Positions 29,762 to 64,000 of a DNA stretch of 64,000 nt are shown in pieces. The stretch comes from Nitrospirota bacterium (GTDB lineage Bacteria; Nitrospirota; Thermodesulfovibrionia; Thermodesulfovibrionales; Dissulfurispiraceae): the NCBI GenBank assembly GCA_963710375.1, contig CAVPZX010000003.1, forward strand, positions 374,084 to 438,083, in the 5' to 3' direction. Made by a program: the position numbers and the translations under genes. Numbering within the stretch: position 1 is the stretch's first letter; each line of letters opens with the position of its first letter. Below the pieces are notes generated by a model. It was given only the letters and a program-made list of their open reading frames with translations. It ran no database searches and had not been told where the DNA came from.

Positions 29762-31340
29762 TCAGTCCGATTGTTTCTGTCTGATTGCCATGACCGTCTG
29801 ATCGCGCAACATTTTTAGGTAGTTTAAATGCTCAGCTGAGACTTTCTGAAAGCCTTCCTTGTCCCCTTCCACATAAATCAACCCTACAGGTTTATTATTT
29901 ATTATAATAGGCAAAAGGACAATAAAGGTTTTTTTTAATACCCTGTTTTTGAACCACTCCGGCAGCAGCTTTCTGACAGCGGCAGGCTCGAGGTCCTTGA
30001 TGACAAGATCATGCTGCTTCGCTACCGCTATGTTAAAGATGTCGTTCGAATCGCCAATTGGAATAGTAAACCACTTTTTCATTTCCTGAATCCCGCTCCC
30101 GATTCCGAACTTGATGCTCATGCTGGCAAATTTTGTATCCTTTATCAGGAAGAGGACTTTTCCGTCCCCTGACAGACTGCATGCCTCTGTAAATAGTTTC
30201 CAGCACAATCCTTATTATATCGTTCAGCGAGAAACTGCTCAATAATGAACAAGTGACATCGTGCAAGCCGTTTGAGAATATGCTCTCGGGGGTATCTTCT
30301 TTTTCAGATCCGGCAATAACATCAATCGACTTTAGTTGTTCAGATGTAAAGTCCGCGTGTAGAGGTCCTGCAACCGTTGCTGACGGTTCGACCACCTTAT
30401 CCGACCAGGTCATCAACTGCCTGTTAAAAGGAACACTATCCAGGTTGATATGAAAAATAGTCGAAAACTGATTCAGCTCTTCAAGACTTTCATTAATAAC
30501 ACCGGTTATCACCTTGCGGTTCAGCCCGGAGAAAGTAGTCTTGAACATGTCGGCAAGTTTGCCAAGCCTCTCATCCATCTCCTTCTTTTCCGAACTGCTC
30601 GATAGTATGTTCGATATTTCATTGGAAAGGGAAGCAATGCTAATGAGCTGATTGATCTCATCGGACGAGTCTTTGACTTCCGTTCTGCTGAGTTTGTGCA
30701 TGCTGCGAACGATCTTGGTCGGGAAATTCCATCCCTTGGCTATTGCCATGCCTATCTCCTCATATCTCCCGCCGAGGACCGAAAGGGCAGCCGCATCTTC
30801 TGAAATACCTCTTTGACGGCTTACAGATTTTATCTCCTTTATTGTTTCAGGCAAGGCAAAGGATATCAGCATCTTCCCAAAATTGTGGAGCAGCGAACAG
30901 ATAAACGCCTCTTCCTTGTTCTCAAAAGATACCTCGCCGCATAACTTCTGGGCCAGGAATCCGCTGTAAAAAGATTTGATCATAGTATCCAGATGCTCGA
31001 GATTTGAATCGCCCTCACGGAAATGACCAAAAAGCATTAACGTAAGGCAAAGATTCTTGATGTTTTCAAATCCAAGCAGATTGACCGCACGGGAAATAGT
31101 AGTAACTTCCCCGAACTGGGAATAACTGACGCTGTTGACAACTTTTATGATCTTTGACGTCAATGCATAATCCCTCAAAACAATATTGGCTAATTCAGTA
31201 ACAGAGGCGTCTTCGGCAGCCTTCAACTGATTAATCATGTTCATGGTATTAGACATGGCAGGAAAGTCACCGTTTTCCTGCAAGCGTCCTAAAATAACAT
31301 CTTTAACACTTTGTTGCGCCCCACGCATGACGAACTGCAT
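29762..31340 (-). CDS. HDOD + C-terminal GAF-like protein split by an extra base at 30176 (about 525 aa if corrected)
   Basis: DFPAM, DYALTSKIIKVVNS, GWNFP; IYRGMQ|LSGDGKVLFLIKD joins two ORFs when one base is removed. Confidence 0.8.
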
Positions 31341-31485: not shown

Positions 31486-32865
31486 TTAAGATTCATCCTC
31501 ACCTTTTTCCAGGTTATATTTTTTAAGTTTTCTCCATAGAGATACCCTGTCTATGCCGAGTATCTGCGCTGCGAGTGTCTTGTTGTCTCCGACCTCTCCG
31601 AGCACCCACTGGATATAGGTCAACTCCTGGTCCTCGAGAGAGGGTATTGTACCCCGCTTTTTCCTGAATGTCTTAATGCTTAGCTCCCTGAGGTCCTCCG
31701 GCAGGTGGGCAACCTCTATTGACGCACCATTGGAAAGCGCCACGCCACGCTCGATAATGTTTTCAAGCTCCCTGACATTGCCCGGGAAATCGTAATTCAT
31801 TAACAGCGCAATAACGTCCGGCGCAATCTCCCTGACAGGCTTCTTCATCAGGGTCGCGTACTTGTTAAGGAAATAGTAACTCAAGATGTGGATATCTTCT
31901 TTTCTCTCGGAAAGTGGAGGAAGGTACAATGAAACGACGTTGAGTCTGAAATAAAGGTCCTGTCTGAAGTTGCCGCTTTTAATGGCATCGGAGATGTCCC
32001 GGTTTGTGGCTGCAATGAATCTGACGTCAACTTTTACAGGCGCCGTTGCACCGAGACGAAGCACCTCCTTCTCCTGGATTACCCTGAGAAGTTTTACCTG
32101 CATAGAAGCCGGCATCTCGGTGATCTCGTCCAGGAAAAGCGTACCCTCCGAAGCCATTTCGGTCAGTCCTTTTTTCATGGTCATCGCTCCGGTAAAAGCG
32201 CCTTTTTCATGGCCGAAGAGTTCGTTTGAGAGCAGCTCCTCGGTAAATGCGCCACAGTTAATAGCGAAGAAGGGGCCATTGGAGCGGGCGCTGTTATTGT
32301 GTATGAATTTGGCAAGAATCTCCTTGCCTGTACCGCTCTCCCCGCTGATGAGGATGTTACAGTCAGTAGGTGCTATCTGTCGTGCTGTATCGAGAAGCCG
32401 CTGCATGGACGGGTCCTGAGTAATGATCTTGACTTTGCCTTCATAGGTTTCGATCTGCTCCCTGAGCTGGATATTCTCCCGCTTCAGACGGACTTTTTCG
32501 AGGGCCTCTTTCACGACCAGCCGCACCTCGTCCAGTTTGAATGGTTTGGCTACGTAATAAAACGCCCCCAGTTTAATTGTGTCGACAGCGGACTTCAAGG
32601 TTGCATATCCGGTGATCATGATGACCTCGGTGTCGGAATGAAGTTCCCTGCAGCGTTTCAGTATCTCCAGACCGTCAACTTTTTCCATTTTCAAATCCGT
32701 GAGCACCACATCGAAATGTTCTTCGTATAGGAGTTTGAGGGCGTTTTGTCCGCTTTGTGTGCCGGTGACGTTGTACCCCTCTTTTTTCATGACATGTTCA
32801 AGATTGTTAAGCGCCACTTTTTCATCATCGACAATTAATATTCTTGCGTTATTCGGCATTGTCAT
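31486..32865 (-). CDS. Sigma-54-dependent response regulator (REC-AAA-HTH, NtrC family)
   Basis: GESGTGKE, ELFGHEKGAFTGA, LFLDEI, FRQDLYFRLNV, PGNVRELEN, Fis-type HTH. Confidence 0.96.
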   Translation of the reverse strand: MTMPNNARILIVDDEKVALNNLEHVMKKEGYNVTGTQSGQNALKLLYEEHFDVVLTDLKMEKVDGLEILKRCRELHSDTEVIMITGYATLKSAVDTIKLGAFYYVAKPFKLDEVRLVVKEALEKVRLKRENIQLREQIETYEGKVKIITQDPSMQRLLDTARQIAPTDCNILISGESGTGKEILAKFIHNNSARSNGPFFAINCGAFTEELLSNELFGHEKGAFTGAMTMKKGLTEMASEGTLFLDEITEMPASMQVKLLRVIQEKEVLRLGATAPVKVDVRFIAATNRDISDAIKSGNFRQDLYFRLNVVSLYLPPLSERKEDIHILSYYFLNKYATLMKKPVREIAPDVIALLMNYDFPGNVRELENIIERGVALSNGASIEVAHLPEDLRELSIKTFRKKRGTIPSLEDQELTYIQWVLGEVGDNKTLAAQILGIDRVSLWRKLKKYNLEKGEDES

Positions 32866-32880
32866 TACTCTCCTCTTTGA

Positions 32881-34389
32881 TTACTCTTTGCCTGTTCCTC
32901 TCGGTATGGGCAGGCGAATAAGGAATATGGTACCGCTGCCAGGTTTGCTATCGACTGCTATGCAGCCGTCGTGTTCTACTATGATTTCATGTACAATGGA
33001 TAACCCGAGCCCGGAACCTTTCCCAACGTCTTTTGTAGTAAAAAAAGGATCGAATACCTTGGGCAACACATCGGCATCTATACCCGATCCGGTATCCGAT
33101 ATCTCTATATCAACGGTATCGTCTTCAACAGTGCACTTACCATGATACTTCAGGTAATTGTATATCTCCGGTTCGTCTTCGTGCGCTTTCTCGATAGCAC
33201 TCCGCCGCTGCGCCCTGACATAGACTATGCCTTCGTCTGGAATAGCTTCGATGGCATTTTTGATCAGATTAAGAAAGACCTGCTGAATCCGCTGTTTGTC
33301 GGCGAATATTACCACGTCGTTTGGCACACTGACTTCTATATCGACTTTTGTCGGCACCTGCCCTTTTACAAAACGTATGGTCTCTTCAATGAGGTTTTTA
33401 AGCGGCAGCGTCTCTTTCTTGAAATCCTTGTTCCTCGAGAACTCAAGCAGCGACTTGACGATATTCCTTGCCCTGTCTGTCTGTTCGTCGATCTGTGAAA
33501 GGAGTTCCTTCTTATACTCCATGTCATCCTCAGCGACTTCTTCAGTTAGAATCTGGCATGAGGTTGAGATATTTGAAAGAGGGTTGTTGAGTTCATGAGC
33601 TATTCCTGACAGCAGGGTACCCAGCGATGCAAGTTTCTCTGTCTGGATAAGGTGCCTCTGCCGCAACTCGAGTTCCTTGAGCATTTTATTGAAAGCATTT
33701 GTAAGCGACACAATCTCCCTGTCTTTTGAGTCCATGTGTATGATTTCGAACCGTCCTTCCGCAATTGTTTCCATGCTTTCTTCGAGAAGCTTAAGCGGCT
33801 TGATCACCATCCTGGTCAGTATCTGCCCCACTACAATACCCAGAAGCGAAAGAGAGATGATCGAAATAATAAGCATGCTTTGTGAATTGTGAAGCTGGAC
33901 CTGGAGACGTTTTCTCTCGGTATTGGCAATATCATCAGCCGCGTCCACGATCTCTTTTCCCGTCTTTCTGATCATGCTGTCGAGGACTTCCTTATTCGAT
34001 GTCCCGATTTGCGGGTTTGCATATTGCTCCATCATTTTTTTGTATTCCTTCAGGTTTTGGAGCAGCATCGCGGTTTGCATTGGCCGGGCAACAGTATTGA
34101 ATTCAGCGAGATTGTCCTCAAGGGATTTTTGCGCCTGGCTCACATAATTAAGAGTTTCCCGGTAATCGGATTCATGCTTGTAGAGGAAAAAGTTCTTCTC
34201 AAAGCGCCGCGCTTCAAGCGTAGAATTGAAAAATTCAGTGATGGTTTTACCGAAAAGGATTTTTTTTTCAAAAAATCTGAGTTCCATAAATGAAAAAACG
34301 GAAAGGGCGATGATTATGGGGACAATTCCATAATAGCCGAATGCTATTTTTTGCCTGATACTCGGCCGGTACCTGAATTTTTTCAGCAT
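32881..34389 (-). CDS. Membrane sensor histidine kinase (2 TM, HAMP, HisKA, HATPase)
   Basis: EKLASLGTLLSGIAHELNNPL, QQVFLNLIKNA, DTGSG, FDPFFTTK, GSGLGL. Confidence 0.96.
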   Translation of the reverse strand: MLKKFRYRPSIRQKIAFGYYGIVPIIIALSVFSFMELRFFEKKILFGKTITEFFNSTLEARRFEKNFFLYKHESDYRETLNYVSQAQKSLEDNLAEFNTVARPMQTAMLLQNLKEYKKMMEQYANPQIGTSNKEVLDSMIRKTGKEIVDAADDIANTERKRLQVQLHNSQSMLIISIISLSLLGIVVGQILTRMVIKPLKLLEESMETIAEGRFEIIHMDSKDREIVSLTNAFNKMLKELELRQRHLIQTEKLASLGTLLSGIAHELNNPLSNISTSCQILTEEVAEDDMEYKKELLSQIDEQTDRARNIVKSLLEFSRNKDFKKETLPLKNLIEETIRFVKGQVPTKVDIEVSVPNDVVIFADKQRIQQVFLNLIKNAIEAIPDEGIVYVRAQRRSAIEKAHEDEPEIYNYLKYHGKCTVEDDTVDIEISDTGSGIDADVLPKVFDPFFTTKDVGKGSGLGLSIVHEIIVEHDGCIAVDSKPGSGTIFLIRLPIPRGTGKE

Positions 34390-34454
34390 GATTTCACTCT
34401 ATCATAAGAATATTGCAAAAAGCAACGATTGAGCAAAATGATGTAACATTAGGA

Positions 34455-34572
34455 AATAGTGAAACGTGAAAGGTGAATAGTGAATCGTCAATGGCATGCA
34501 AATCGGCGGCGTCTTAATGCTTGTCCTTACTTTTTCTTTTCACCTTTCACTTTTCACGATTCACCTTTCACT
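34455..34572. repeat. Heptamer-unit (GTGAANN/NNTTCAC) palindrome downstream of lon
   Basis: aatagtgaaacgtgaaaggtgaatagtgaatcgtcaa ... ttttcacctttcacttttcacgattcacctttcact. Confidence 0.75.
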
Positions 34573-34577
34573 GTTGT

Positions 34578-36594
34578 TTATGTCAGCACAAGATCGATGA
34601 CTTCATTAATGGTATCGGCGAAATGAATAGTCATGCCGTCTGTTACTTCGGCGGACAGCTCGTCCATTTCAGCCTTGTTGCGTTCAGGAAGAATAACGGT
34701 TTTTACATTAGCCCTTTTAGCTGCAAGGACCTTTTCTTTGATGCCCCGGACCGGTAATATCCGCCCGGTCAGCGTAATCTCTCCGGTCATGGCCACATCG
34801 CGTCTGGCTGGCCTCCTGGTCAGCAGCGAAAAAAGCGACATGGCTATGGTTATGCCTGCGGACGGGCCGTCTTTTTGTATGGCTCCGGAGGGCACATGAA
34901 TATGTATATCATGGTGCTCAAAAAAATCCTCCGGTATGCTGTAAAGGGCGGCATTGCTTCTCACGAAACTCAATGCTGCCTGCGCCGATTCTCTCATAAC
35001 TTCGCCAAGGGAACCGGTCATTATAAGTTCTTTCTTCCCCTTCATGGCTACAGCCTCGACAAAGATAATGTCGCCTCCCGCTTCGGTGAGTACAAGGCCT
35101 GTGGCAACTCCAATTTTGTCTTTCTCGCCGGCAACTTCGTAGTAATGATGCCCCTGTCCCAGATATCGAACAACATCACCGGGGGCGATAGTTACAGTAT
35201 TTGGTCTCGCATCGGGGGAGCTTGAGCACTGCACCATTTCTCTTGCTATCTTTCGGCATATGGTCGCAATCTCCCTTTCCATGTTCCTGGTGCCGGCTTC
35301 ATGAGTATAATTATCTATAATGCTTGCAATAGCGTCTTGAGTGAACACAACAGGGCCGTATTCGATACCCTTTTCCCTGAGCTGCCTGGGGACAATGAAT
35401 TGAGAAGCGATCTGTATTTTCTCTTCGCGCGTGAAGCCGGTGAATTCTATCACTTCCATGCGGTCTCTAAGCGGCGCAGGAATGTTTTCGATCGTATTGG
35501 AAGTCAGAATAAACACGACAAAGGAAAGATCAAATGGGACATCAAGATAGTGGTCAACAAAGCTGTGGTTTTGCTCAGAGTCCAGGACCTCAAGCAACAC
35601 TGAGGAGGGATCTCCCTTGAAATCACGACCTATTTTGTCGAGTTCATCCAGCATGATGACAGGATTGGAAGATTCCGCCCTCCGTATCTCTTCGATAATC
35701 CTTCCGGGTTTAGCGCCAACATAAGTACGGCGGTGGCCCCTCAGACTCTGCTTCGTCTTTCAGTCCGCCCAGCGCTATCCTGGCGAATTTTCTTCCCAGG
35801 GCGTCGGCGATGGCTTTGCCCATGGATGTCTTGCCTGTGCCGGGAGGGCCTGCAAAGCACAGGACAGAACCCCTGATGTTCTGAGTTTTTGTCCTGCTTT
35901 CCAGTGCCTCCCGAACAGCGGTGCGTACTTCCTCGAGTTTGAAGGGTTTCGAAATATAGGAGAAAGCGCCTTTCTTCATTGCCTCTACAGCAGAAGAGAC
36001 AGTGGCATACCCGGTCACCATTATGACCTTGGTATCGGGCCGCGTCTGTCTTATGCTTTCAAGTACTTCCAGGCCGCTGACACCCGGCATTTTAAGATCC
36101 GAGATTACCACATCGAATGAAGCCTCAGAAAGCTTTGCCAAAGCATCGCGGCCGTCCTCCGCGGTCAAAACTTCATACGCGTCTTTCTGAAGAATGTGCG
36201 ACAGGTTTTTTCTCGCGACTTCTTCATCATCGACGATAAGTATACGCGATTTTCTGTTCATGATAAGGGATTTGACCGCCAGATGTTCGAGAATCCTCTC
36301 TTTGATTGCAGGCAGGCCATAATGGTTCCTGTCCAGTATGGCTTTAGCGTTTGCAAGATCAATGCTGTCCTCAGTCTTTTTATTCCATGGAAGTGCCAGC
36401 AGGTAATCGATATAAGTCATGCCTATGGAATATTCCGTGGTAGAGGGACTTATCCTCGAAAGGCCCTCCAGTTCATGAAGGGCGATCTTTTCGACCCGGG
36501 GTGGCATATTGGCAGAGGCGATCGACTCCCGGAGTTCATCGAGCGCCGTCTCTTCCCGATGCTCGTCGCCATCGTTCTTTTTAAAGAATTTCAT
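34578..36594 (-). CDS. lon: Lon-type ATP-dependent protease lacking the N-domain, with inserted receiver domain; extra base at 35745 (about 671 aa if corrected)
   Basis: LPW, HYGL..IKERILEHLAV, REC, GPPGTGKT, DEAE|LRGHRRTYVGAKPGRII, MLDELDK, KDGPSAG, IKEK. Confidence 0.9.
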
Positions 36595-36854
36595 TGTTTG
36601 TATATTATCACAGATGCGTCAAATTAGGAATTTTAGTAGTGGGTCAGTGGTAATCTGCAGCCAATTTGCACAAGATGCAGAATATAATGAAATTTATTTG
36701 CGATACATAGTAAAATGACACCTATAGAGCGTTGCAGACCACTAAGCTCTCGGATGTCTTCAAGGTGAGTTTCTTGCCGGAATGACATTTCAACAATTTT
36801 ATGTAATGGATTTCGGGTTATCTTTATTTCTTGAAAGTTAACCCGGAGGTAATT

Positions 36855-39800
36855 ATGAGCCATAACTTATTTATAGATCAGATGGACTATATTTATTTCA
36901 TCTATGGTCTTGCCTTTATTCTGCTTGGTGCGGTGACTCACTTTCTGTCCCGTATTGACAAAAGGCTGCCCTGGACATGGCTCTGCATGTTCGGTTTTAT
37001 TCATGGCTTCAACGAATGGCTGGATATGTTGGCTTTCAGCCTGGGTAACAGTACTATATTCAGTCTTCTGCGTATGTTGTTAATGGTCGCTTCTTTTCTT
37101 CTTCTCGTGGAGTTTGCAAGAAATGGAACCTCTGCGTTGCAGGGGAGAAATGTGTCTAAGTGGGTTCTAGTGCCCTTTCTGGTGTTAGCTGTCTCTGGCG
37201 CATTAACAGGGATCGAGGGGTTAACTGTATCCTGCCGATATGCACTTGGCCTACCTGGAGGGATCTGGTCAGCATGGGTTTTATATCGCTATTCAGATAA
37301 GCCCGATCATTTGGAAAGCGGACGGTGGCTGACATATGCAGCCTTGGCAATGGCTTTTTATGGTTTTTCCGCAGGTTTTATAGTACCGCCATCAGCATTT
37401 TTCCCAGCATCTCAGATCAATTATGATTCGTTTCTCGCGACTGCTGGCTTCCCGGTTCAGGCAATGCGGTGTTTTCTGGCACTAGTTATCACTCTTGGTT
37501 TGTGGCAGCACTATCGTTCGTGTCATGAGTCTGTCATTTCAATATGGCAAAGATTCTCGTCATAGGCTCATAGGCCGCCTGCTGGTAATTGCTGTCATCT
37601 CTGTGCTTGCAATAGGTTGGGTAATGACAGGCTATTTTGGAAAAGTCGGATTCAACAATGATCTGGCACGTGGGCACTCGAGGTTAAAGTATTATCAGAT
37701 CCATTTATCTTCCCTGCTCCAGACAGTTGACAAGGTCGCGATTGCAGTTTCTGAAAGCCCATCTTTGAGCTCAATGACTTCAACTGGAGGGGGTATCAAT
37801 GAAAAAGCTGTTAATTCAACTGTTGACCGATACAGCAGCCTTGTTCCGGATACAATCATCTACATCATAAATACTGAAGGGATAACTGTTGCGTCATCCA
37901 ACCGAAACACACCATCGAGCTTCGTCGGCGTGTCTTATTTGAAGCGCCCATATTTTTCGGAAGCCTTGAAGGGAACTGCTTCGTTTTATGTAGCTATGGG
38001 AATTATGACAAAAAAACCGGGCTATTTTGCGAGCTACCCCATCCGTAATCGGTCCGGAAGAATCACAGGGGTAGCGGTTGTCAAATATACCTTAGATGTT
38101 GCAACTGAAGGTGAAGAGAATTACTTCTTGATTGATTACAATGGAATAATTCTTGGCGCCTCCAATCACGATCTGATTATGCGTGAGCTCTGGCCGCTCT
38201 CCGGGAATACCCGTCGGTTTCTGAGAGAGTCCGGGCAGTATCCCTTGTCAGGCAAGGCGCCTCTTTTGGCTGAAACACCTGAAAATGAAAAGCATGTTTA
38301 TTATGCCGGCAAGCAAGCCCGCTTTTTGATGATGGAAGTTCCTGACAAGAGAATGTCTTTTGTTTCTATCGGACAGTTCCGGGATCATAAACTGATGCGT
38401 CTGTTGGGTATCGGAGGCACCTTATTCATTGTCCTTCTCAACATCGGCGTCTTTATTATCGAAGAGCATCAGGAGGCGGATAAAGACGCTCTGCGAAAAT
38501 CGGAATATGCACTCCGCAGAGTTTTTGATCATGTATATGACGCTGTTCTTGTCCATGATCGGAACGGAGACATAATGGATATCAATGAGCGGGCACTCGC
38601 CCTATATGGCGTTACGCGTCAGGACGCTCTAAAAATGAGTATTATTAAAGATTTCTTAGGAAAGGACAATCCTGCGGATAAGGTTTCTTTATTGTGGGAA
38701 AAGGTGCTTCTCGGAGAGCCTCAAAACTTTGAATGTAAGGCTCGCCGACCCGGGGATGGCACTGAGTTTTATGTGGATATGTTTTTCGACAGGATGGAAC
38801 TTTCTGGAAGGCATGTTGTTGTTGCTACAGTCAGGGACATTACTGACAGCAAGAGGACAATGGAAGAGCTTCAGAAACTTTCACAAGCGATACGGCAAAG
38901 TGCATCTGCTGTTACCATAACAGACACGCAGGGCAGGATAGAATTTGTAAATCCGCAGGCTGAAAAAGTTACGGGATATTCGGCAAGCGAGGTTTTGGGG
39001 CAAAACCCAATGATGTTCAGATCCGGAATTCACCCCGATGAGTTTTACAATTCCATATTCGAGACCTTGAGGTCAGGGCACGAGTGGGTCGGCGAGATAT
39101 GCAACAGGAACAAAAAAGGTGACTTATACTGGGAGCACTCCTCTATCGCTCCTGTATTGAACCAAGAGGGCAATATCACTCATTACATCCTGGTCAATGA
39201 AGATATAACTGAGCGAAAACAGATTGAAGAGGCTCTCAAGAAGGCGAAGACGGCTGCGGAAGCGGCGAATGTGGCAAAGAGCGATTTTCTGGCAAACATG
39301 AGCCACGAAATCCGCACCCCATTGAACGGCATAATGGGGATGACCGGTTTGCTTCTAGACACAGGGCTTTCTGAGGAGCAGCGGAACTATGCCGAGATGC
39401 TGCGCTCAAGCGGCGAGCTGTTGCTGGGCCTGATCAACGACATCCTTGACTTCTCCAAGATAGAGGCAGGCAAACTGGAGATAGAGACAATAGAGTTTGA
39501 TCTGAGAAACACGCTTGAAGAGACTGCGGAGTTTCTGGCCTTGAGGGCCCACGAAAAGGGTCTGGAGTTAATATGCCGGATAGACCCCGGCGTCCACACA
39601 TTCCTAATAGGCGACCCTGGCCGGCTTCGCCAGGTATTAGTGAACCTGATAGGGAATGCCATCAAGTTCACCTCAGTGGGCGAGGTGGTTATCGAAGCGG
39701 TGACGGAATATGAGAGAGACGGTCAGGTAGCGGTGCGTTTCAATATTAGGGATACTGGCATTGGGATACCAGAAGACAAACTGCCTTTATTGTTTGACAG

Positions 39801-41247
39801 TTTTCAGCAGGTTGATGCCTCTACATCGAGGAAGTTTGGAGGCAGCGGCTTAGGGTTGGCAATATCTAGGCGTCTGGTTGAGCTAATGAATGGCAGGATA
39901 GGGGTTGAAAGCATAGAAGGGAAGGGTTCCAACTTCTGGTTTACAGCAGTGTTCGATAAGGGGAGTCAGCCGGACAGGGGAGAAATGCCTCCATTTGCCG
40001 ATATCAGCGGGGTGAGGATACTGTCAGTAGACGACAATGCGGTGAACCGCATCGTAATTGCAGAGCAGATGAAGTCGTGGGGGGTGCGCCATGCCGAGGC
40101 CGGGGGAGCTTTAACGGCAATGGAGATGCTCCATGCCGCTCAAGCTGAAGGGGATCCTTTTCGGGTTGTAGTTACTGATATGCAAATGCCTGGGATGGAT
40201 GGCGAAGCCCTTGCCAGGGCCATCAAGGCAGACCCAGTTTTGAGGGACACTTTGCTGATTATGCTGACATCCAGTGGAGTGAGGGGAGATTCAAAGCGGC
40301 TTGCGAGCCTTGGATTTTCCGCATATCTAACCAAACCTGTAAGGATGTTCCAACTGCACGACTGCATAGCCGCAGTCCTTGGCGGGAGCAGTCTGCATGA
40401 AAAGGCCCAGGAATCCGCCATTATTACGAAGCATTGGCTTCGTGAGGCATCCAGGCAGAATGCGCGCATTCTACTGGTGGAGGATAACAAAGTGAATAAA
40501 CTGGTGGCAGAGGGCATTCTGGGCAAATTGGGGTTTATTGCTGACACCGCTGACAATGGCCAGCAGGCGATCAATATGCTGGAAGCCGCTTCTTACGACA
40601 TAGTCTTCATGGATGTGCAGATGCCTGTTATGGATGGATATCAGGCGACCATGGCTATCCGGGGTGGCAAGACAAAGGCAGCGAATCCTAATGTACCTAT
40701 TATTGCAATGACAGCCCATGCCATGATGGGTGACAGGGAGAAATGCCTGCAATGTGGGATGGACGATTATATCTCAAAGCCGATCTCTCCGAGGAAGTTG
40801 TCCAAGGTGCTCGAAAAGTGGCTGCCACAGGCGCGGGTCAAGTTGCCGGCGGAAACTGATACGACCCATGATAAGACAGCAGCGGCAGTAGAAGCATTGC
40901 CGGTCTTTGACTATGCAGGGCTTATGGAACGAATAATGGATGACAAGGGTTTGGCTGGAACAATCGTTACGGCATTCATGAAAGAAATACCCTGGATGGT
41001 TGATGACCTCAGGGTGCAGATAGCGCGTGGCGATGCTGGACTTGCGGGCAGACAAGCCCACAAGATCAAGGGGGCAGCGGCCAACACAGGATGTATGGCA
41101 ATGAGCGCCATAGCAGCTGATATGCAGAAGGCCGGAGAACAAGGGGAAATGGAGACACTGATTGCACTTATGCCTGAGCTTGAAAGCCAGCTTGAGTTAC
41201 TGAAGGCTAAAATCAAAGACTCGGGGATAGTAGACAGGCGCAGTTGA
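36855..41247 (+). CDS. Hybrid histidine kinase (multi-TM + Cache + 2 PAS + HisKA + HATPase + 2 REC + Hpt); extra base at 37530 (about 1463 aa if corrected)
   Basis: [61 protein letters not shown]; ORFs 36831-37565 and 37495-41247 join. Confidence 0.88.
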
Positions 41248-41316
41248 AAGCGTCCCGATATGGCATTATTAATAATCCTTTTCATGATATAATTTTCTTA
41301 GCACAGGAGGACATTC

Positions 41317-41697
41317 TTGGAAGGACTAAGAATATTGGTAATAGACGATGAATATATCACGCGGATTTTTATTAAGAGTTGCCTGCAAATGTCTTTCCCG
41401 GGCTGCATAATAGTTGAGGCGGCCTCCGGACAAGCTGCATTAGAAAAGATTAAGAGCGAGCCATTCCATATTGTGCTGTGCGACTGGCAATTGCCGGATA
41501 TAAGTGGGGTCGAAATACTCGAATGGGTCAGGGTCGCATCGGATACAAAAAATATGCCCTTCATGATGATAACGGGTGATAGCAACAGGGAACACATTAC
41601 CAAAGCGATATCATTGGGGGTCTCGGGTTATGTCATCAAGCCATTGGACTGCGCGAGTCTGTCACAACGTATCGTAGCAGCATTGGTCCCAAAGTAG
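41317..41697 (+). CDS. CheY-like single-domain response regulator
   Basis: ILVIDDE, VLCDWQLP, MITG, YVIKP; AGGAGG RBS with TTG start. Confidence 0.9.
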   Translation: MEGLRILVIDDEYITRIFIKSCLQMSFPGCIIVEAASGQAALEKIKSEPFHIVLCDWQLPDISGVEILEWVRVASDTKNMPFMMITGDSNREHITKAISLGVSGYVIKPLDCASLSQRIVAALVPK

Positions 41698-41737: not shown

Positions 41738-42151
41738 TCAGTCACCTGCCTTGAGTATGCCCGATGCGGCAAGCGCCAGAATTAAAACCTCAATAACGGA
41801 GAAGACGACGTACAGCATATCTTTCTTTCTGTATAATATCGGGATGATCCTCAGATAACACAAGATCGTCACACCGGCAAGGAAAGCAATGCTGACGAAA
41901 TTAAGAAAATCACCTTTGCCGATCATGTACAACCAGGACCATCCCGAATGGATATGTGTAGCCGCAAGATATTTATGCACCGGCATGCCCCAGTATTTAG
42001 GAAGGTCACGCACCGGCACATGAGCCGGCAGGAGACCGCTAAGATAAATAATGAATATTACAATAAGCAAGAGCAAGCCGGCTTTCATCCCTAGTTCCAG
42101 GATGTTGGCGTATGCAAGCTGCTCCTCTGTCGCCTTTATTTTCTTATCCAT
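41738..42151 (-). CDS. DUF1634-like membrane protein
   Basis: EEQLAYANIL, YW, GWSWL..IGKGDFLNF; adjacent to TauE gene. Confidence 0.7.
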   Translation of the reverse strand: MDKKIKATEEQLAYANILELGMKAGLLLLIVIFIIYLSGLLPAHVPVRDLPKYWGMPVHKYLAATHIHSGWSWLYMIGKGDFLNFVSIAFLAGVTILCYLRIIPILYRKKDMLYVVFSVIEVLILALAASGILKAGD

Positions 42152-42196: not shown

Positions 42197-43162
42197 TCAT
42201 ATACCCAGTCCCTTAAGCAATGCCTTCAGACCGGCAAAAAGGAGTAAAACTATAACGATGTACCGTATCGCCGCCGGCTTTGTTTTTGCCAATATCCTGA
42301 CGCCGACTATCGAGCCCAGCATAATGCCGATAATGGACGGGACCACCATCATCGGAAGCACCGCACCGCGGTTCATATATATCCATGCCGCTGACGTGTC
42401 CGTGATGGAAAGCAGGAATTTACTCGTCGCCACCGCTACTTTCAAAGGGGCCCCCATCATCAGGTTCAGGACAGGAACATTCGCCCATCCCGCTCCCAGA
42501 CCGAACATGCCGGCCATGAAACCTATAATAATAAAAGTAGCGAGACCCTGCGGTGTCCTGTGTATCTGCCAGTTGACTTCATGGTCGCTGGACGGTTCGT
42601 AGTAAATGCCGTTTATCCTGAGCGCCATTGAAAGGGCGTCAGGATGTTTGACTTCCGGGTATACCGATTTTTTTGCTGTTAGCATAATGCCGACGATAGC
42701 GAGAATGGCCGCTCCGAGCGCTGTTTGAACTATTTTAGTCGGAAGCGCAAGTCCCACCATCGCTCCGACAATCGCACACGACGATGCAATGAGCGCGACA
42801 GGCATAGACAGCCGCAAATCCGCCATGCCTTTTTTCAACAAGCCGGGTCCTGCAGCCAGGGCGCCTGATAAAGCTACGAGGAGACCGGCGCCTCTCACAA
42901 AATCGAGATGGAACGGAAAAAAACCTGAGATGATCGGGACAAAGAGCACCCCACCTCCGACACCGCCCAATACAGCCACGATGCCCATAAGGAATGTAAC
43001 GACAAATAATGACAACGGCCACACCCACCATGGGACATTCGATGATGCCGCAGCCACCGGAGCCGAAGTTGCATCGGCTGATGCCACAGCATAGCCGTTC
43101 ATACCAAAAACAACCAATAAGATGGTTAAAAATAATATTAGTGCTGCTGATCCTCTCAACAT
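42197..43162 (-). CDS. TauE/SafE (TSUP) family permease
   Basis: GGVGGGVLFVP, GMFGLGAGWANVP, KVAVATS; start set to ATG 43162 by GGAAGG RBS. Confidence 0.9.
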   Translation of the reverse strand: MLRGSAALILFLTILLVVFGMNGYAVASADATSAPVAAASSNVPWWVWPLSLFVVTFLMGIVAVLGGVGGGVLFVPIISGFFPFHLDFVRGAGLLVALSGALAAGPGLLKKGMADLRLSMPVALIASSCAIVGAMVGLALPTKIVQTALGAAILAIVGIMLTAKKSVYPEVKHPDALSMALRINGIYYEPSSDHEVNWQIHRTPQGLATFIIIGFMAGMFGLGAGWANVPVLNLMMGAPLKVAVATSKFLLSITDTSAAWIYMNRGAVLPMMVVPSIIGIMLGSIVGVRILAKTKPAAIRYIVIVLLLFAGLKALLKGLGI

Positions 43163-43231
43163 TGTTTTATACCTTCCTTCTATCTTAATCGTTCCAGTTC
43201 GAAATGTCCTCACTCACTGTTAAGACCTATC

Positions 43232-43408
43232 TTATTCGGCTCTTAATTCTTTTCTCTTATCAGGTCTCTGGCGTTTGTCGGTGGAAGGCCTTTTTGTTTT
43301 CCTCGGCTCGTTTTCATTCATTATCTGACGGGCCGTCTCAAATTCTCCCTCTTCAGCAAAGGTCGCTGCCATCATCATAGTCTGAAATCTTTCGATTAAC
43401 CTTCTCAT
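43232..43408 (-). CDS. Small hypothetical protein with AATFAEEGEFETAR motif
   Basis: GAGGA RBS before ATG 43408; first gene of the TauE cluster. Confidence 0.7.
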   Translation of the reverse strand: MRRLIERFQTMMMAATFAEEGEFETARQIMNENEPRKTKRPSTDKRQRPDKRKELRAE

Positions 43409-62874: not shown

Positions 62875-64000
62875 TCAGGCGTCTAAGACTCCTGAGTCTT
62901 TAATTTTAGCCTTCAGTAACGCAAGCTGGCTTTCAAGCTCAGACATTAGTGTAATCAGTGTCTCCATTTCCCCTTGTTCTCCGGCCTTCTGCATATCAGA
63001 CTGCTATGGCGCTCATTGCCACACATCCTGTGTTGGCAGCTGACCCCTTGATCTTGTGGGCTTGTCTCCCGGCAAGTCCCGCATCGCCCCTCACTATCTG
63101 CTCCCTGAGGTCATCAAGCATCCGGGGGATTTCCTCCATGAATGCCGTAACAATTGTTCCTGCAAGACCCTTGTCATCCATTATGCGCTCCAAAAGCCCT
63201 GCATAGTCAAAGACCGGCAATGCTTCTTGGACTACTGCTGTTGTCTTATCATGGGTCATATCAGTCACCGCCGGCAATTTGACCTGACCCTGCGGCAGCC
63301 ACTTTTCGAGCGCCTTAGCCAATTCCTGGGGCGAGATCGGCTTGGAGATATAATCGTCCATCCCCACTTTCAGGCATTTCTCCCTGTCACCCTTCATGGC
63401 ATTTGCTGTCATTGCGATAATAGGGACATGGCAACCGGAATCAATCTCGATATGACGGATGGCACGAGTTGCTTCAAAGCCGTCCATAACCGGCATCTGC
63501 ACATCCATGAATACTATGTCGTAAGAAGCGGCTTCCAGCATATTGACCGCCTGCCGGCCATTGTCAGCGGTGTCAGCAATGAACCCCAATTTGTCTAAAA
63601 TGCCCACTGCCACCATTTTATTCACCTTATTATCCTCGACCAGAAGAATGCGTACATTCCGCCTCGCTATCTCACGAAGCCGGTGTCCGGTAATAATAGC
63701 GGTTTCCTGGGCCTTTTCATGCAGACTGCTCCCGCCAAGGACTGCGGCTATGCAGTTGTGCAGTTGGAACATCCTTACAGGTTTGGTAAGATATGCGGAA
63801 AATCCAAGGCTCGCAAGCCTCTTTGAATCTCCCCTCATCCCGCTGGATGTCAGCATAACCAGCAAAGTGTCCCTCAAAACCGGGTCTGTCTTGATGGCCC
63901 TGGCAAGGGCTTCGCCATCCATGCCAGGCATTTGCATATCAGTAACTACAACCCGAAAAGGGTCCCCTTCAGCTTGAGCAGCATGGAGCATCTCCATTGC
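62875..64000 (-). CDS. C-terminal REC-REC-Hpt part of a second hybrid kinase, paralogous to 36855-41247; extra base at 63000; runs off window end
   Basis: Near-identical to 40116-41230; removing base 63000 restores [19 protein letters not shown]...KIKDSGVLDA*. Confidence 0.9.

Follow-up and report, generated by a model that had tools for sequence, protein, structure and literature searches.

A receiver-containing Lon protease of the DVU3303 type in a Nitrospirota genome, with a predicted split regulon and a candidate Arg-rich recognition tail

A locus encoding a Lon protease with an inserted receiver domain (receiver-Lon), a membrane histidine kinase and a sigma-54 activator was characterized in a 64,000-nucleotide stretch of a Nitrospirota genome (contig CAVPZX010000003.1, positions 374,084 to 438,083; referred to as the window). 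The locus is an ordinary member of the DVU3303-type family, which has been known since 2011. To what is already published on this family, the present analysis adds a match in predicted kinase-docking residues between the two receivers, a split regulon, and versions of the kinase, activator and operon that lack Lon and differ in the C-terminal tail of a small protein encoded by the operon.

Phosphorylation control of bacterial AAA+ proteases is known to operate via separate adaptors (CpdR, RssB), and a receiver wired into the Lon motor would, if functional, represent direct two-component control of proteolysis. The main obstacle for receiver-Lon to date has been that no substrate was at hand. 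The question can now be tested with the help of the small protein with an Arg-rich tail, the shared docking residues and the Lon-less relatives, which serve as natural controls.

Architecture of the receiver-Lon gene

34578..36594, minus strand: receiver-containing LonA without N-domain, DVU3303-type; 671 amino acids (aa) after read-through of an assembly error
36577..36594, minus strand: MKFFKK, a conserved hydrophobic-basic motif at the N-terminus, with an acidic linker behind it
36259..36546, minus strand: retained Lon pre-ATPase helices, aa 17-112 (TIGR00763 positions 237-357; 3m6a_A residues 8-102)
35899..36249, minus strand: inserted receiver domain, aa 116-232 (PF00072, E 3e-34)
36097..36099, minus strand: Asp166, predicted phosphoacceptor (Asp in 120/120 close homologues listed and in 58/58 diverse homologues)
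35827..35850, minus strand: Walker A, GPPGTGKT, from the sequence
35745..35745, no strand assigned: extra base causing a frameshift, an assembly error (left out in the contigs of 4/4 runs)
34584..35186, minus strand: Lon_C protease domain (PF05362, E 4e-80), with Ser578 at 34860-34862 and Lys621 at 34731-34733

In the assembly the Lon gene is divided over two frames of 283 aa and 388 aa. Pfam assigned Response_reg (PF00072) to aa 118-228 of the N-terminal piece (E 3e-34), with AAA beginning at 245, and AAA, Lon_lid and Lon_C to the C-terminal piece, which bore out the initial annotation, made from the sequence alone, in placing a receiver at aa 116-232 (nucleotides 35899-36249). Its claim that the usual N-domain is absent was borne out as well, as no LON_substr_bdg (PF02190) domain was detected in the Lon gene product by the Pfam scan. 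The joined pieces (671 aa) were identical to the intact homologue P0005 (89%) at 611/672 columns. Residues 1-120, which hold the helices, align with TIGR00763 positions 237-357, and when P0005 was compared to Bacillus subtilis Lon (3m6a_A), its blocks 16-110 and 237-670 were collinear with residues 8-102 and 103-530. Because these blocks land on contiguous residues of 3m6a_A, the receiver is cleanly inserted, directly ahead of Walker A. The pre-ATPase helices, AAA+ core, lid and Ser-Lys protease domain are thus collinear with LonA (endopeptidase La; TIGR00763, 3M6A); unlike LonA, the protein lacks LON_substr_bdg, carries a receiver before Walker A and has a short, conserved N-terminus with two Phe and basic residues.

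All phospho-pocket and catalytic residues named beforehand were found: D122/D123, D166, T194, K216, Walker A, Walker B, R378, S578 and K621. The receiver contains the canonical PF00072 set (acidic pair, phospho-Asp, Thr/Ser, aromatic switch and Lys), and the remainder contains the LonA set of Walker A/B, pore Tyr, sensor 1, Arg finger, sensor 2 and Ser-Lys dyad (S578, K621), the N-terminal LON_substr_bdg domain being the part that is missing. Among 58 diverse full-length homologues from two phyla, D122, D166, K216, the Walker A Lys, R378, S578 and K621 were invariant (58/58), and so were the switch residues T/S194 and Y/F213. This invariance supports the prediction that both the phospho-pocket and the protease work. 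Within the MKFFKK motif, F4 was present in 58/58 diverse homologues, and residues 7-22 were net negative in 53/58. An AlphaFold2 monomer of P0005 (predicted local distance difference test score 66.5, predicted template modelling score 0.35) had a well-folded receiver and a poorly folded AAA core, and was uninformative on where the receiver is placed in the ring; Foldseek with this model matched Lon structures only.

The +1 frameshift noted at 35745 is present in the assembly, and is an assembly error: the base was absent from the Logan contigs of 4/4 public runs (two studies; one run may be the source sample). Contigs of the same four runs bridge the receiver-ATPase junction, so the gene is not a chimera. 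The frameshift by itself would fit a pseudogene or a chimeric misassembly; in view of the four runs and the bridged junctions, this explanation counts as refuted. Moreover, 120/120 homologues listed have the same architecture, and the ordinary, N-domain-bearing Lon of this genome (contig C6; L132:7821-10306) is likewise broken, over three frames, which fits indel errors in this assembly. A second difference from all four runs was an A>G change at 35556, at the third codon position of a Val in the Lon gene. An HDOD open reading frame (ORF) and an overlapping GAF-bearing ORF at 29762-31340, 145 base pairs (bp) past the regulator, are possibly also one gene split by an assembly indel.

Relation to DVU3303-3305 and distribution

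In Desulfovibrio vulgaris Hildenborough, DVU3303 (Lon with receiver), DVU3304 (kinase) and DVU3305 (sigma-54 regulator) were described as a three-component system with stress-induced operons, and Rajeev et al. proposed in 2011 that phosphorylation is possibly required for the protease activity of DVU3303 (PMC3333781). The similar D. vulgaris cluster that the initial annotation mentioned is therefore real, and since the same hypothesis was carried in that paper, the idea of phosphorylation-gated proteolysis is not new. Orthologues of the system were noted earlier in Thermodesulfovibrio yellowstonii (accessible parts of PMC3333781, PMC4641369 and PMC10102598), and the same DVU3305 regulon is listed in the available portion of PMC4641369. 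According to the accessible text of PMC10102598 (2023), DVU3303 is annotated as 'protease La, truncation' (2109 nucleotides) and overlaps DVU3304 by 4 nucleotides; the three genes show cofitness above 0.9, the loss of any one of them aids growth in chlorate, and the target DVU3299 is needed in chlorate.

The locus in the window is like DVU3303-3305 in domain content, gene order, binding motif and types of target genes. It comprises a response regulator with a truncated Lon protease as output, and the order Lon, kinase, sigma-54 regulator is kept on one strand with gaps of 188 and 15 bp. It differs in that Lon lies 188 bp from the kinase gene instead of overlapping it, the motif upstream of Lon has been lost, and the target operon, divergent from Lon in D. 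vulgaris, is split. Orthology to DVU3303 is drawn from architecture, gene order, gene sizes and motif; no D. vulgaris-named protein was among the 120 homologues listed, and homologues of about 50% identity were found in Desulfovibrionaceae. Neither Lon-less versions nor the Arg tail are mentioned in the accessible parts of the three papers.

All of the at least 120 homologues listed contained receiver, AAA, lid and Lon_C, and none contained PF02190, so the nested architecture foreseen by the initial annotation was shared by 120/120 of those listed. The nearest named homologues were from Nitrospirota. Receiver-Lon was present in 32/201 genomes of the window's phylum and in 27/201 genomes of a second phylum (that of G204, which has a Desulfovibrionaceae contig), and Desulfocurvibacter africanus and Desulfacinum infernum are among the named cultured organisms that carry it. 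A scan for related loci, covering about 1/64 of the collection, gave a full-length receiver-Lon match in only 5/80 loci. A profile search of 50% representatives gave mostly ordinary Lons; a receiver was present in 5/17 top matches scanned, and no other layout of receiver-Lon was found among these 17. The same representatives included Lon-like proteins (889-1379 aa) in which a single Lon_C follows two or three AAA+ modules (P0125, P0127, P0128, P0130, P0131, P0133, P0134, P0135, P0137, P0144, P0145).

A phosphorylatable receiver controls an AAA+ protease in the CckA-ChpT-CpdR/CtrA pathway with ClpXP of Caulobacter (PMC11519897) and in RssB-ClpXP (PMC7226468), and the former resembles the arrangement proposed here in that a single kinase path leads to both transcription and proteolysis. 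In CpdR and RssB, the receiver is a separate adaptor of a general protease, whereas here it is fused into the chain of a dedicated protease.

Kinase, activator and the split regulon

32881..34389, minus strand: membrane histidine kinase, DVU3304-type (HAMP, HisKA and HATPase_c by Pfam; predicted extracytoplasmic four-helix sensor)
31486..32865, minus strand: sigma-54 activator, DVU3305-type (REC, AAA+ with GAFTGA, HTH_8)
34412..34426, no strand assigned: DVU3305-type palindromic site with 2 mismatches, 23 bp before the kinase start; relatives have a site at the same place
43232..43408, minus strand: small protein of 58 aa; its FAEEGE core is predicted to be helical, and its Arg-rich tail ends in LRAE; DVU3302-like by size and position
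42197..43213, minus strand: TauE/SafE-family transporter, encoded immediately after the small gene; several genomes have homologues (68-82%) near this system
41738..42151, minus strand: 137-aa membrane protein, found after this TauE in relatives
G000:C2:720328-720501, strand not stated: second copy of the 58-aa gene, before a Usp-like gene

Pfam confirmed the domains of the membrane kinase and the NtrC-type regulator that had been named as the next co-oriented genes; the kinase sensor resembles CHASE3/4HB/TarH, which is given as a lead only. The likeness noted between the Lon and activator receivers held up and was not due to chance, as they showed 57% identity, while the runner-up among the genome's 107 receivers reached 48%. 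Eight docking positions were compared, which we take to be those mapped in work on the OmpR family. At these predicted positions the neighbouring activator shared 7/8 residues with the Lon receiver and the other 105 receivers at most 3/8, and across 25 loci the Lon and regulator receivers shared 4-8 of 8. In a receiver tree (117 columns), 24/25 Lon receivers fell near their cognate regulator receivers; the tree was too weak to inform on origin. The docking-residue match and the conserved linkage support the earlier suggestion that one kinase likely phosphorylates both the activator and the Lon receiver. The analogy drawn to NtrC-type receivers, which control AAA+ ring assembly, holds only loosely, because the receiver is inserted inside the Lon ATPase module and not N-terminal to it.

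Many genomes and lineages were found to have this regulator (58-82% identical), the kinase and the linked target genes without a receiver-Lon; one of them is a complete genome whose genus also has a Lon-bearing member. Because the kinase-regulator pair exists without Lon, the protease is an accessory arm and not a needed part of the signalling. Lon could then also be a mere modulator, its receiver acting mainly as a phosphate sink or for docking, and thereby either tuning the kinase-activator pair or recruiting the protease to kinase or activator, with activity independent of Asp166; the near-identical docking residues would make both receivers compete. We consider this very unlikely, as such a role does not need embedding beside the Walker A of an intact ATP-dependent protease with invariant T/S194 and Y/F213, and loss of a pure sink should oppose loss of the kinase, which the D. 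vulgaris cofitness contradicts.

In many relatives (L111, L117, L121, L122, L147, L148, L149, L154), the Usp gene of the target operon is followed by another pair of kinase and sigma-54 regulator, whose docking residues differ. In the window, the usual place of the target operon (36831-41697) is taken by a membrane gene, the gene for a Cache-PAS hybrid kinase of 1250 aa that includes Hpt, and a CheY-like gene. The C-terminus of a very similar kinase is encoded again at the window end (62996-63997).

Sites of the GTTGCA-n3-TGCAAC type, corresponding to the validated DVU3305 motif (PMC3333781, Tables S7 and S9), were present within 450 nucleotides upstream of Lon in 18/20 relatives, with 0.28 expected from shuffles, and upstream of the kinase in 11/12 Lon-less loci. 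The palindrome at 34412..34426 is likely to be bound by the regulator. Only two perfect and four one-mismatch sites were found in this genome (3.19 Mb), and one perfect and one 1-mismatch site lie together on contig C2 before the second small-gene copy, in front of a target unit composed of the 58-aa gene, the Usp-like gene and a TIGR02186-like gene. Sites of this type hence stand before the kinase and the C2 operon and not before Lon, and the motif is predicted to mark a split regulon in this genome. Upstream of Lon and of the small gene in the window, neither a sigma-54 promoter nor the regulator motif could be found; the C2 promoter is only sigma-54-like, with a deviating -12 element, and sigma-70 and terminator scans were at chance level. 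The other perfect site (G000:C4:244117; L134:6118-6132) lies about 58 bp before an operon for a sulfhydrogenase-like [NiFe] hydrogenase, a possible extra target.

In relatives, the operon divergent from Lon encodes a small protein, a Usp-like protein, a small membrane protein, TauE and a tandem Usp, and matches DVU3302 (180 nucleotides), DVU3301 (543 nucleotides) and DVU3299 (1071 nucleotides) by size and order; the target operon of the D. vulgaris system is DVU3302-3298 (accessible parts of PMC3333781, PMC4641369 and PMC10102598). This five-gene TauE/Usp operon, which faces Lon in most relatives, is broken up in this genome and partly missing. The small-gene copy in the window precedes a different TauE, 6.6 kb from Lon, and no close DVU3299-type TauE was found in this genome (best 30%). 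The missing divergent operon lowers the identity of the locus, not the family membership of the three genes. In two other loci (L003, L004), a membrane transporter of about 620 aa, unrelated to TauE, faces receiver-Lon; these genomes gave no match to the FAEEGE small protein.

The Arg-rich tail and the direction of control

The 58-aa small protein had no significant Pfam match and no NCBIfam match, and is predicted to consist of a helix-turn-helix core and an unstructured tail. At least four Arg in the last 20 aa were present in 47/50 Lon-bearing cases compared to 0/17 Lon-less cases, the small proteins having been retrieved with a profile of the core alone. The difference is also seen between members of a single genus (G090 with Lon; G013, one complete contig, without), and both copies in the present genome keep the Arg tail though they lie apart from the Lon gene. 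No Arg-rich tails were found on Usp-like, tandem-Usp, TauE, kinase or regulator genes; the small membrane gene had one in 5/21 Lon-bearing compared to 0/10 Lon-less loci. Left out of the count were G182, the loci L160 and L162 (different operon, regulator at 37-40%, non-basic tails), loci without a small ORF in the stretch (L087, L106, L166) and second-phylum Lon loci without a small ORF within 1.5 kb (G250, G285, G316, G346, G376, G398). Among the 17 Lon-less rows, four (L151, L152, L155, L157) had no orthologous regulator in the sequenced stretch compared, and L154 represents the latter half of an ORF with two copies of the motif. For 12/17 of these rows the absence of Lon was checked again by scoring every candidate; for the other five it depends on searches in which 12 candidates per genome were scored.

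The Arg tail is a candidate degron or adaptor dock, and we propose the following model. The kinase would sense an extracytoplasmic cue and phosphorylate both the activator receiver and Asp166 of Lon; the activator would drive the small-protein, Usp and TauE genes, and phosphorylation would activate rather than inhibit Lon. Phosphorylated Lon may then recognize the Arg tail and either degrade the small protein or act through it, so that the protease arm limits or resets the output of the TauE/Usp operon, general quality control being left to the ordinary Lon on contig C6, which has its own N-domain. Ordinary Lon reads C-terminal degrons by its N-domain (accessible text of PMC11882793), so a Lon without this domain needs another recognition route, and the Arg tail might be what replaces it. 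Activation is favoured on account of the chlorate fitness in D. vulgaris, where loss of the system is beneficial and the target DVU3299 is required; a destructive arm acting below the kinase could account for this sign. The model as a whole, with a shared kinase and with phosphorylation switching on proteolysis of, or through, the Arg-tailed product, remains tentative, its chance of being right somewhat below even.

Several points weigh against the model. The DVU3305-type motif upstream of Lon has been lost here (best 3 mismatches), and no biochemical study of receiver-Lon was found in the literature searched, most subscription papers being beyond reach. The tail statistic was not significant when kinship was allowed for (p 0.5); Lon presence changes at least six times on the regulator tree, with only two independent pairs on well-supported branches, both usually concordant. 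In one genome (G182), which is 88% complete and has part of a Lon gene at the edge of a contig, two full Arg tails were present and no receiver-Lon was found, and when it is counted the Lon-less tails become 1/18. No small-protein match was found in 6/27 second-phylum receiver-Lon genomes, nor in G202 and G203. The FAE core occurs in 70/201 genomes of the window's phylum, including all 32 with receiver-Lon, so the core presumably binds something else. Arg in the last five residues differs for the kinase too (11/21 compared to 1/12), and this measure is therefore confounded by lineage. The cofitness in D. vulgaris may reflect polarity because of the overlap of DVU3303 with DVU3304 by 4 nucleotides. 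Finally, the sign of phosphorylation control on Lon is not fixed by sequence.

This last point leaves room for the same wiring with the opposite sign, in which Lon, active while unphosphorylated, would remove the tagged small protein in the absence of the signal and would be silenced by phosphorylation as the activator makes the operon products, as in a CpdR-like coherent switch. Such an arrangement avoids making and destroying one protein simultaneously, fits the shared-kinase and tail evidence equally well, and has a precedent in Caulobacter, where CpdR phosphorylation by CckA-ChpT coincides with inactive ClpXP proteolysis (available part of PMC11519897). It predicts opposite phenotypes for loss of kinase and loss of Lon, whereas in D. 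vulgaris these have the same sign, unless the Lon insertions are polar; we regard it as unlikely.

Alternatively, the shared kinase may gate a broad stress protease, with the Arg tail travelling with Lon in a mobile cassette and not serving as a recognition signal. The small gene is usually the divergent neighbour of Lon and easily co-transferred, Lon-less tails are shared between genera (L147, L149), only two strong independent pairs are available, some receiver-Lon genomes lack the small gene, and the D. vulgaris operons respond to stress (PMC3333781). On the other hand, the tails of the two phyla are barely alignable yet remain Arg-rich, they persist where the small gene is away from the Lon start (the window, L125, L206, L207, L209), and a similar end is found on another gene of the operon in some Lon-bearing loci only. 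Co-transfer without recognition is accordingly judged rather unlikely.

Returning to the model of phosphorylation-activated Lon, a more specific form may be proposed, in which the built-in phospho-switch and the Arg-rich tails on FAEEGE-helix proteins of 55-60 aa constitute a dedicated code replacing the N-domain, the small protein being substrate or adaptor. In the adaptor version, the helix of the small protein would capture other FAEEGE-tagged Usp-like and receiver proteins; FAE cores were also found at the ends of Usp-like and stand-alone receiver proteins. We hold this form to be possible but doubtful. If true, one kinase would both make and clear regulators of TauE anion transporters in sulfur-cycling anaerobes. 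LarA, a Lon activator and substrate of Caulobacter, is like the present candidate in being stress-induced and engaging Lon via a C-terminal degron; it differs in that it binds the Lon N-domain by a terminal aromatic residue, whereas here the N-domain is absent and the tail is Arg-rich (PMC11882793, in the part accessible).

The FAEEGE helix of about 25 aa was also seen as a portable module outside known Pfam families. It lies C-terminally in stand-alone proteins of receiver size and N-terminally in Usp-like ones, or is repeated in tandem, often in TauE or kinase clusters (L126, L128, L147, L158, L195); further loci with this module were L196, L200, L204 and L210.

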